DNA from: Sphingomicrobium sp. | GTDB lineage: Bacteria; Pseudomonadota; Alphaproteobacteria; Sphingomonadales; Sphingomonadaceae | Reading direction: 5' to 3' | Assembly: GCA_039929125.1 (NCBI GenBank) | Contig: JBDSRV010000073.1 | Location: forward strand, 16,639-80,638 | Length of the DNA stretch: 64,000 nucleotides | Part shown: positions 26,158-28,295 of the stretch, piece after piece | Layout: the number at the start of each line of letters is the position of its first letter | Position numbering within the stretch: position 1 is the stretch's first letter | Notes under the pieces: model-generated | The model's input: only the letters and a program-made list of their open reading frames with translations | Database searches by the model: none | Told to the model about the DNA's origin: nothing | Made by a program: the position numbers and the translations under genes

Positions 26158-26862
26158 ATGGCCTTGTCCCACGTCCATCCCGAGCGCCATCTGGTGGCGC
26201 GGATCGGCTGGCTTCGCGCCGCGGTGCTCGGTGCCAACGACGGAATCGTCTCGACCGCCAGCCTGATCGTCGGGGTCGCCGCCGCCGCTTCGTCGCGCGG
26301 GGAGATATTGCTCGCCGGAGTCGCCGGGCTGGTGGCGGGCGCGATGTCGATGGCGGCCGGCGAATATGTCTCGGTCAGCTCGCAGGCCGACACCGAGCGC
26401 GCCGACCTTGCCCGCGAAACCGCCGAGCTGGCCGCCGACCCGGCGTTCGAACAGCGCGAGCTGGCCGCGATTTATGCCGCGCGCGGGCTCGACCAGGCGA
26501 CCGCGGAAACGGTCGCGGCGCAGCTCATGGCCGGGGACGCGCTCGGCGCCCATGCCCGCGACGAGCTGTCGATCACCCACGTCTCCACCGCCCGCCCGGT
26601 GCAGGCGGCGCTGACGTCGGCGGCGACCTTTACCACCGGCGCGGCGCTGCCGCTGGCGGCGGCGTGGCTGTCTCCGCCCGGCCAGGCGATGATCGTCGCG
26701 GTATCGGTGGCGTCGTTGCTGTTCCTCGCCGTGCTTGGCGCGGTCGGCGCCCAGGCGGGCGGCGCGCCGGTCGGCCGCGCCACGCTGCGGGTGGCGTTCT
26801 GGGGGGCGCTGGCGATGGCGGCGACGGCGGCCATCGGGCGGCTCGCGGGCGCGGCGGTGTGA
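26158..26862 (+). CDS. VIT1/CCC1 family Fe/Mn transporter
   Basis: LRAAVLGANDGIVST, GAMSMAAGEYVSVSSQ, HARDEL. Confidence 0.92.
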   Translation: MALSHVHPERHLVARIGWLRAAVLGANDGIVSTASLIVGVAAAASSRGEILLAGVAGLVAGAMSMAAGEYVSVSSQADTERADLARETAELAADPAFEQRELAAIYAARGLDQATAETVAAQLMAGDALGAHARDELSITHVSTARPVQAALTSAATFTTGAALPLAAAWLSPPGQAMIVAVSVASLLFLAVLGAVGAQAGGAPVGRATLRVAFWGALAMAATAAIGRLAGAAV

Positions 26863-26911
26863 CAGGTCTGGACGGGCCGCACCTGCTGGCGATAGAGGGC
26901 GTGCGCGGATG

Positions 26912-26984
26912 GCCGGTTTAGCTCAGTTGGTAGAGCAGCGGTTTTGTAAACCGAAGGTCGCGGGTTCGACTCCTGCAACCGGCA
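26912..26984 (+). tRNA. tRNA-Thr (anticodon TGT), CCA not encoded
   Basis: GCCGGTT/AACCGGC acceptor, AGCTCAGTTGGTAGAGC D-arm, TTTGTAA loop, GGTTCGACTCC T-arm; followed by CCG. Confidence 0.95.
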
Positions 26985-26999
26985 CCGCAGCGCCCAGCC

Positions 27000-27194
27000 T
27001 TATCCCCGATGGCCGCGCTTTTCCTCGGACATTTGCTGCCCGCGCGCCTTCATCGACTGCTGGAGCAACCGGTCGGAGGTTTCGGCGGCAGCTTCGGGGC
27101 TGAGCTTGACGTCGACCGAGTCGGGTCCAGTGACCGTGACATGTCCGTCTTCGGCGCCGACGTCGCTCGGCTCATCATAAATCTTGTCATCCAT
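27000..27194 (-). CDS. Small acidic hypothetical protein (64 aa)
   Basis: MDDKIYDEPSDVGAEDGHVTVTGPDSVDVKLSPEAAAETSDRLL...; host-like codons. Confidence 0.7.
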   Translation of the reverse strand: MDDKIYDEPSDVGAEDGHVTVTGPDSVDVKLSPEAAAETSDRLLQQSMKARGQQMSEEKRGHRG

Positions 27195-27293
27195 GAAGCA
27201 TGGAAAACCCTTCGCCGGATATTGGTTCCGCACCGCCCTCCGGCCCAAGCATCAATATTCTGAATAAAAACGAAAACTATTTTCATTCGCGCC

Positions 27294-27318
27294 GGAACCA
27301 ACCGCGTAGCCCGCCGTT
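27294..27318 (+). promoter_or_regulatory. EcfG/RpoE2/SigT-type general stress promoter
   Basis: Exact GGAAC-N16-CGTT, intergenic, with an AT-rich tract upstream. Confidence 0.7.
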
Positions 27319-27323
27319 ATGTC

Positions 27324-27391
27324 AGCGTGGTTCACTTCTTCGGAAGCGAACCATGGAACCCCGGCAACTTCGGTTGCCGGGGTTTACTTTT
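27324..27391 (+). ncRNA. Candidate ~65-nt small RNA with two C(UUCG)G hairpins
   Basis: Downstream of the promoter motif; hairpin 27327-27354, perfect 12-bp hairpin 27357-27384, then TACTTTT; no credible ORF. Confidence 0.6.
27357..27391 (+). terminator. Intrinsic terminator
   Basis: AACCCCGGCAAC-TTCG-GTTGCCGGGGTT followed by TACTTTT. Confidence 0.75.
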
Positions 27392-28295
27392 ATCGCCACG
27401 GCGCCGCGTCCGAGCGCTCGACCTGGATGGTCGAATGGCTGATCTCGAACAATTGGTGGACATAGGCATTGGCCTGACGGATGACGCGGTCGCCGTCGGC
27501 GCCGGCGTCGACCACCAGGTGCACCGTGAGCGCGGTCTCGGTCGTGCTCAATGACCAGATGTGCAGGTGATGGACGTCGCAGACGCCGCCGAGCGTCTTC
27601 AGCGCTTTCTCGACCAGTGACGGATCGACCCCCTTGGGCACGCCGGCCAAAGTCATCGACGTCGCTTCGGCCAGCAACCCCCAGCAGCTCCACAGGATCA
27701 CCCCCGCGACCGCCAGGCTGGCGACCGGGTCGATCCAGTCTTTGCCGGTGACAATGATCAAATAGCCGGCGACCACCACCGCCGCCGATACCGCCGCGTC
27801 GCCGACCATGTGGAGGAAGGCGCCGCGGATGTTGAGGTCGCTCGACCGCCCGCGCGCGAACAGCCAGGCGGTCACCGCATTGACGAGGATACCAATGCCG
27901 GCGACGACCATGATGGTCGATCCGTTCGACGGGGTCGGTTCGGCCAGCCGGCGGATCGCCTCGGCGATGATCGCGCCGGTCGCGGCGAACAGCAGCAGCC
28001 CGTTGAACAAGGCCGCCAGGATCGAGCTTTTCTTGAGTCCGTAAGAGAAGCGCGGGCTGGGGCGCCGCTTGACCAGCACCGCCCCGGTCCACGCCGCCGC
28101 CAGCCCGAGCACGTCCGACAGATTATGCCCGGCGTCGGCCAGCAGCGCCATCGAGTGGGCGGCCAGGCCATAGCCCGCCTCGACCGCGACGAACCCGCTG
28201 TTGAGCAGGATGCCGACCAGAAATGCTTTGCCGAAATCCGCCGGCGCATGGGCATGGGCGTGGGCGTGGCCCGAATGGTCGTCCGCAACTGACAT
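27390..28295 (-). CDS. Cation diffusion facilitator (CzcD/ZitB-like) metal exporter
   Basis: His-rich N-terminus HSGHAHAHAH, LADAGHNLSD, AFLHMVGD, HHLHIWSL, HSTIQVE. Confidence 0.92.
   Translation of the reverse strand: MSVADDHSGHAHAHAHAPADFGKAFLVGILLNSGFVAVEAGYGLAAHSMALLADAGHNLSDVLGLAAAWTGAVLVKRRPSPRFSYGLKKSSILAALFNGLLLFAATGAIIAEAIRRLAEPTPSNGSTIMVVAGIGILVNAVTAWLFARGRSSDLNIRGAFLHMVGDAAVSAAVVVAGYLIIVTGKDWIDPVASLAVAGVILWSCWGLLAEATSMTLAGVPKGVDPSLVEKALKTLGGVCDVHHLHIWSLSTTETALTVHLVVDAGADGDRVIRQANAYVHQLFEISHSTIQVERSDAAPWR

Follow-up and report, generated by a model that had tools for sequence, protein, structure and literature searches.

We describe here what is very probably a real and previously undescribed non-coding RNA gene, about 70 bases long, of the soil genus Sphingomicrobium. 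It lies on the plus strand of a 64,000-nucleotide stretch of DNA (the window), and the explanation that we regard as likely is a free-standing small RNA (sRNA) gene, from 27324 to about 27393, preceded by an A/T-rich block resembling an UP element and by an EcfG-type promoter, whose product would play a trans-acting role in the stress response. The sequence traits by which a free-standing sRNA gene is recognised were found, i.e. a promoter of its own, an intrinsic terminator, a covarying structure, the lack of a conserved frame and independence of the neighbouring genes. The first-pass annotation had proposed such a gene from an exact GGAAC-N16-CGTT motif on the plus strand, two UUCG hairpins and a U-tail, all of which lie where it had placed them. 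That this is an independent plus-strand gene is now borne out by covariation, by the strand bias of G.U pairs and by a convergent neighbour that varies among loci. We found no literature on sRNAs of Sphingomicrobium.

In the model that we propose, the EcfG-type promoter GGAAC-N16-CGTT would drive the sRNA and transcription would end at hairpin 2. Transcription of the window copy and its dependence on EcfG are both predictions from sequence. The features of the locus are the following.

27254..27289, plus strand: A/T-rich UP-like element, 5' of the -35 element (read from the sequence)
27294..27298, plus strand: -35 element GGAAC (unchanged in 40/40 EcfG-type homologues over a variable spacer)
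27315..27318, plus strand: -10 element CGTT, 16 nt past the -35 element (sequence and homologue geometry)
27324..27393, plus strand: predicted sRNA transcript of about 70 nt (putative start at A27324, putative end in the U-rich tail)
27327..27354, plus strand: hairpin 1 (fold and compensatory changes)
27352..27359, plus strand: invariant junction CAUGGAAC joining the helices (alignment of 104 distinct copies)
27356..27385, plus strand: hairpin 2, intrinsic terminator with a 13-bp stem and a UUCG loop (fold and terminator scan)
27386..27393, plus strand: U-rich 3' tail ACUUUUAU, overlapping the stop codon of the convergent gene
27390..28295, minus strand: convergent cation-efflux (CDF) gene (ORF; Pfam Cation_efflux 4.8e-37, ZT_dimer 1.6e-13)
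27000..27229, minus strand: divergent 64-aa acidic small ORF (27000-27194) and an imperfect GGAAC-N15-GGTT (27206-27229), from the sequence

Hairpin 1 has an outer stem GUGGUUC/GAACCAU, a 1x1 internal loop (A opposite C), an inner stem CUUC/GAAG and a UUCG loop. The stem of hairpin 2 comprises 12 Watson-Crick pairs and a closing G.U, also under a UUCG loop. As modelled, the two helices are joined by one nucleotide and the RNA ends at hairpin 2. The CDF gene is the only sizeable ORF 3' of the tail. It is convergent, and its stop codon TAA (27390-27392) falls inside the tail, so that the two genes overlap by 4 nt, namely this codon and one further base (27390-27393). The host genome, a 1.98-Mb assembly of the genus Sphingomicrobium that is 90.6% complete, carries the sRNA in one copy, on contig C73.

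Some other elements of the neighbourhood deserve mention. A gene for a VIT1-family iron/manganese transporter (26158-26862, plus strand) and a tRNA (26912-26984, plus strand; anticodon UGU, read by eye) lie just upstream of the sRNA. Together with the CDF gene, the VIT1-family gene forms a metal-transport neighbourhood that surrounds the sRNA here and is not seen around it in other genomes. The 64-aa ORF is acidic and hydrophilic, a Pfam search assigned it to no family, and its imperfect GGAAC-N15-GGTT is very close to its start codon. Both the ORF and its GGAAC are kept in the locus of the closest relative. It possibly encodes a leaderless stress-induced small protein.

The two-hairpin RNA and its homologues

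Both strands of the element fold well, the plus strand at -42.7 kcal/mol (z = -8.3) and the minus strand at -38.6 kcal/mol (z = -7.7), and the terminator scan called hairpin 2 on the plus strand only. The structure was analysed on 113 covariance-model matches, of which 104 are distinct. Covariation among homologues, suggested earlier as a check on the proposal, was indeed found: among the 104 distinct copies 99.2% of the pair cells form standard pairs and compensatory changes occur at 12 of the 20 pairs. The pairing score was equalled by none of 500 shuffles, and it collapsed in controls with slid partners. The alignment of the family has 237 G.U cells against 5 A.C cells. Hence the plus strand is the RNA, since only this strand can form the structure. 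Family-wide, the 10 nt past the hairpin hold 4.5 U on the plus strand compared with 3.0 on the minus strand.

The constraints are unevenly spread along the molecule. Five of the seven pairs of the hairpin 1 outer stem show compensatory changes, one position going through five pair types; its closing G.U is invariant, and the hairpin differs widely in length and inner sequence from one homologue to the next. Compensatory changes in hairpin 2 (7 of 13 pairs) are in the upper stem, whose variants include GGCAAC, GCCAAC, GGUAAC, GGAAAC, GGAGAC, GGUUAC and others, and CCCG/CGGG does not vary. Across the 104 distinct copies CAUGG at the junction is invariant, the next bases are nearly so, and the G.U pairs flanking the junction never become G-C. 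Not every member of the family has the UUCG cap, since two divergent ones from the same genus (loci L061 and L067) carry in hairpin 2 the loop GUCAAA on a CCGG-extended stem instead.

Homologues are 66, 72, 74, 76 or 78 nt long. These lengths differ by non-multiples of three, which is incompatible with a conserved frame, and we thus rejected coding potential. A mobile element was also rejected, given the single copy in the host genome and the lack of visible terminal repeats.

A BLAST search against relatives placed the second hairpin, once per genome and in differing gene contexts, in 16 of 36 genomes of the genus. The covariance model, built on 17 copies, matches the window at 27324-27397 with 81.4 bits, and the ends that had been predicted at about 27324 and 27390 agree with ours. 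Of 121 Sphingomicrobium genomes searched with the model, 84 have the two-hairpin RNA, usually in 1-4 copies that are often in tandem, in some genomes about 170 nt apart. Among 300 genomes sampled across the order, real matches were confined to this genus; four marginal matches outside it (E about 5e-4) are ordinary terminators behind co-oriented genes. A scan for the exact pattern in 185,579 species genomes returned 89 stretches, and the matches listed (80 of the 89) all come from Sphingomicrobium, Sphingomonas or an unclassified alphaproteobacterial or proteobacterial metagenome-assembled genome. The family is thus very probably restricted to the genus Sphingomicrobium in the GTDB sense, as far as sequence searches can tell. 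Cultured carriers include S. sediminicola DSM 18106, S. hankyongi SE220, S. caseinilyticus NSE70-1, URHD0057 and ASV193. The RNA matches no catalogued family either: Rfam models run at permissive thresholds over 26800-27900 recovered the neighbouring tRNA and sub-threshold noise, the best being Spot_42 with 22 bits for a gathering score of 80, so that no known family comes near its threshold for the sRNA.

The gene 3' of the RNA is convergent in 70 of the 75 callable loci and co-oriented in the other 5. The stop codon of the convergent gene lies 0-30 nt from the 3' end of the RNA. This gene encodes in most cases a PLP-dependent enzyme, in some a CDF transporter, and to the left one finds an exonuclease III-like gene, a hydantoinase/oxoprolinase or, in the window, the 64-aa acidic ORF. 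This convergence, together with the changing neighbours, indicates that the RNA is neither a leader belonging to a downstream gene nor a terminator that serves one particular gene alone. The earlier view that it is more than the terminator of the CDF gene is therefore upheld, since the convergent neighbour differs between loci. Hairpin 2 probably ends the convergent mRNA too, serving both transcripts.

Promoter classes and the EcfG system of the host

The motif GGAAC-N16-CGTT occurs once in the 64-kb window where 0.7 occurrences are expected, and at least one occurrence was found in 53 of 100 shuffles. Taken alone it is at chance level in the window, and its significance comes from conservation. 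With the upstream regions anchored at the GUG with which hairpin 1 begins, the elements keep a constant spacing: -35, N16, -10, N8, GUG. The EcfG-type class counts 40 distinct copies including the window, with GGAAC in 40/40 over a variable spacer and a -10 element, always 8 nt before GUG, that reads CGTT in 34, TGTT in 3 and GGTT in 3. These copies share an A/T-rich block (consensus aaatatttt) at -52..-44 from the start of the hairpin. Because homologues conserve an A 6 nt past the -10 element, A27324 is the predicted start site. The window copy has the elements that define promoters of the EcfG regulon (-35 GGAAC and -10 (C/G)GTT, 16-17 nt apart). A footprint of fixed geometry in about 40 homologues supports the proposal of an EcfG-type promoter, and with the promoter motif kept in so many copies the hairpins are not conserved solely as the 3' end of the CDF mRNA.

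The host has the corresponding machinery. One NepR is encoded in the genome, on contig C71 (Pfam, 45.7 bits), next to an ECF sigma gene and a PhyR-sized ORF. The genome holds seven sigma-70-family genes, about five of them ECF-sized (about four besides EcfG). Perfect GGAAC-N16/17-CGTT motifs number 27 in the genome for about 15 expected under an order-2 model, and 25 of the 27 have a plausible gene start 8-154 nt downstream. Among them are sites on either side of the stress locus, one before a CBS-domain gene, of a kind typical of EcfG regulons, and one before a Host_attach gene. The Host_attach family belongs to the published EcfG regulon of Sphingomonas melonis (PMC6599016). We thus infer, with good support from these sequences, that the promoter of the sRNA belongs to EcfG.

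Two of the 27 sites have no real gene behind them, the window sRNA and C71:4841-4866. The latter is a perfect GGAAC-N17-CGTT placed directly after nepR and a gene with a kinase-sized ORF (C71, 4841-4995), and it precedes an RNA candidate of about 120 nt (dG -55.6 kcal/mol, z = -6.2) with two hairpins bearing the C-rich loops CCUUUUGCCCCCCCGCUC and AACCCUCCCCCCCCCC. An Rfam search with this RNA gave no match. It is a candidate GsrN-like sRNA and would fit the description by Tien et al. (PMC5869019). The window RNA appears, from its sequence, to be the second EcfG-type sRNA of the genome, and to be unrelated to the one on C71.

The promoters of the family are not all alike. A second class of 54 distinct copies, which takes in most of the remainder, has TATT or TATG as -10 element, with GGAAC at -35 in only 26. 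Given so many copies with TATT or other -10 elements, some of them without GGAAC, control by EcfG is not family-wide. The second class sits behind three repeats resembling DnaA boxes. A DnaA box with at most one mismatch to TTATCCACA is found in 40 of 53 second-class regions, at a fixed position and in one orientation, against a background of 1.2% per window, and GANTC occurs 3.1 times per 130 nt in these regions against 0.28 in the background. One perfect DnaA box precedes 10 of 39 EcfG-type copies, the window copy not among them; the latter also shows no enrichment in GANTC. Several genomes have a second-class or otherwise non-EcfG-type copy followed about 170 nt further on by an EcfG-type copy. 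At loci such as L070 (1700-1815), L133, L108 and L140 three phased DnaA-box-like repeats, gagtcgCACAgg, TTTATCCACC and gattcgcCCACAg, and about three GANTC sites come before TATT-type copies. Both classes occur in cultured strains: the copy at L070, with its DnaA-box repeats, is that of Sphingomonas sediminicola DSM 18106, and an EcfG-type copy is found in Sphingomonas caseinilyticus NSE70-1 (L088). These repeats and sites lie in the divergent region shared with the exonuclease III-like gene.

In alphaproteobacteria, cell-cycle control is marked by DnaA-box repeats and by sites of GANTC methylation, and the motifs suggest that second-class copies may be controlled by DnaA and by CcrM/GcrA. One might then speculate that the family has two inputs, an EcfG stress promoter in some copies and a DnaA-box-like/CcrM (GANTC) promoter in others, and that the RNA is a shape-specific ligand of a protein rather than a seed for pairing. 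We consider this combined reading improbable.

Competing explanations and mode of action

Could there be no sRNA at all, the hairpins being a terminator, possibly bidirectional, of the convergent gene and the promoter motif a coincidence? In its favour, the motif is at chance level in a single window, the hairpin lies right against a convergent stop codon in nearly all loci and the minus strand folds well too. But the element follows different genes, the excess of G.U over A.C (237 to 5) favours the plus strand, promoter elements are kept at a fixed distance on that strand and tandem copies stand about 170 nt apart; moreover, hairpin 1 would have no purpose in a terminator. This makes the explanation very improbable. 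Even less credit is due, in our opinion, to a leader or attenuator acting in cis on a downstream gene, or to an antisense RNA or type I antitoxin directed against a neighbour. The architecture of promoter plus terminator and the small ORF adjoining in the window could be read this way, but no more than 5 of 75 loci have a co-oriented gene downstream, the RNA shares just 4 nt with the CDF gene and the small ORF is hydrophilic, acidic and absent from most loci. A real sRNA outside the general stress response, with a promoter read by another ECF sigma factor or, through the A/T-rich block, by the housekeeping sigma factor, is a less remote alternative that we judge quite unlikely. ECF promoters of several groups have AAC and CGT cores in common, so that GGAAC/CGTT-like motifs are not the property of one group; of the seven genes of the sigma-70 family in the genome, about five are of ECF size; and sibling copies with a TATT -10 element and no GGAAC evidently use something else. 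Against it, the exact motif stands before the ecfG operon, on the nepR side of the stress locus and before the CBS and Host_attach genes, and GGAAC/CGTT is invariant in 34-40 copies over a variable spacer.

Within the preferred explanation, a stress-response sRNA gene, the question is how the RNA acts. It would act in trans and form a post-transcriptional branch of the stress response. By the partition function, only the tail, the 4-nt loops, two nucleotides at the 5' end and two internal-loop positions of one nucleotide each are unpaired, i.e. apart from the tail no unpaired stretch exceeds 4 nt. For hairpin 1 the constraint is on shape and not on sequence or length; for the junction and the lower stem of hairpin 2 it is on sequence. 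Such a pattern fits either a seed at the junction or a site recognised by a protein. Exact complementarity to the sRNA in the genome extends to at most 13 nt, which is at chance level, and no long stretch was found. Duplex folding of the whole RNA against 2,165 start regions was computed without opening costs and is as such uninformative as a target test. UUCCAUG at start codons was found in 10 of 2,165 genes, about the chance expectation; the start codons preceded by UUCC include those of genes that, from their N-terminal sequences, we take by eye to be clpP-, ndk- and sucB-like. Hfq is present in the genome, where a single frame on contig C16 (7899-8321) codes for a tandem of two Hfq domains (98.5 and 73.7 bits).

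In a first view, the RNA pairs with its targets. The junction CAUGGAA(CCCC), which has an invariant weak G.U pair on either side, would be the only element both constrained in sequence and potentially openable; the weak G.U and A-U helix ends may breathe and, with the help of Hfq, expose a short seed. We prefer, tentatively and at somewhat less than even chances, this reading of the junction as a contact surface for short Hfq-assisted pairing. Somewhat unlikely, though still in contention, is a protein-binding RNA, as the first-pass annotation had suggested, a stacked two-helix rod with UUCG caps whose invariant junction and lower stem bind a protein that is thereby sequestered or guided. Almost nothing in the molecule is single-stranded, hairpin 1 keeps its shape but is free in sequence and length, no change is seen in the junction CAUGGA, in the G.U pairs beside it or in CCCG/CGGG although neighbouring pairs flip freely, and complementarity to targets was searched for in the genome and not found. 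Yet no candidate partner is known, neither a CsrA domain nor a ProQ/FinO domain (PF04352) having a match in this 90.6% complete genome. The RNA has a single GGA-type motif, the AUGGA of the junction, and hence shows neither the multiple loop GGA motifs nor the CsrA protein by which CsrA/RsmA-sequestering RNAs are recognised. Besides, most sRNAs with a promoter and a terminator act by pairing, and Hfq is present. Pairing is thus ranked above protein binding on prior grounds only.

Relation to known small RNAs and significance

To our knowledge, only one EcfG-dependent sRNA, GsrN, has been studied. Tien et al. (2018, PMC5869019) described it in Caulobacter crescentus, along with GsrN-like sRNAs defined by position, and did not find a gsrN-like gene in their sphingomonad outgroup. 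The window RNA resembles GsrN as an orphan sRNA placed behind a consensus sigma-EcfG promoter, ended by an intrinsic terminator and carried by an alphaproteobacterium with PhyR-NepR-EcfG, and both are presumed to be a post-transcriptional arm of the general stress response. But it has neither sequence nor Rfam similarity to GsrN, it is about 70 nt long whereas GsrN has about 100 nt, and it lacks an exposed C-rich loop, both loops being UUCG and its CCCC run being inside the stem of hairpin 2. The position of GsrN, which is usual and not universal, also differs, the stress locus being on C71 and the window sRNA on C73, and in the host genome this position is occupied by the separate RNA with C-rich loops. 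Membership in the GsrN family therefore fails on homology, C-rich loop and position, as read from the sequences. The analogy with GsrN drawn by the first-pass annotation holds in its logic but not in homology, a separate GsrN-like RNA being found beside the stress locus.

Other systems offer partial parallels. FinP is a two-stem-loop RNA antisense to traJ that needs FinO. Like the FinP-type RNAs bound by FinO/ProQ, the window RNA consists of two stable stem-loops with a very short linker between them and a short tail at the 3' end; unlike FinP, it is not antisense to a conserved gene, and no ProQ/FinO domain was found in the genome. MicA, RybB and MicL are enterobacterial sRNAs of the envelope stress response, dependent on sigma-E and Hfq, with single-stranded 5' seeds. 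The logic would be the same for the window RNA, a short terminator-ended sRNA that would supply the repressing arm of an ECF sigma factor that can only activate, but the window RNA has no accessible seed. Homologous and often tandem copies under different promoters recall AbcR1/AbcR2, GlmY/GlmZ and the Caulobacter cell-cycle sRNA CcnA (PMC8959179), to which the window RNA has no homology, and the cell-cycle control of its second class is read from motifs only. SuhB of Sphingopyxis was considered and set aside as unrelated, being controlled by a LysR-type regulator with a regulon largely independent of EcfG. The paper on the EcfG transcriptome of Sphingomonas melonis does not mention non-coding RNAs (PMC6599016).

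A sphingomonad genome thus appears to hold two unrelated EcfG-type sRNA genes, one GsrN-like and one compact and nearly fully paired. For an RNA missing from Rfam the covariation is unusually clean, and the family could consequently enter RNA catalogues directly. Its general reach is limited by its restriction to a single genus of soil bacteria, most of them uncultured. The most interesting thread is the existence of two promoter classes. If the two-input reading were true, the general stress response would be coupled to replication or to cell-cycle control, and the RNA would represent a new class of protein-binding sRNA in Alphaproteobacteria. This hint of a link between stress and the cell cycle can be tested in culturable strains.
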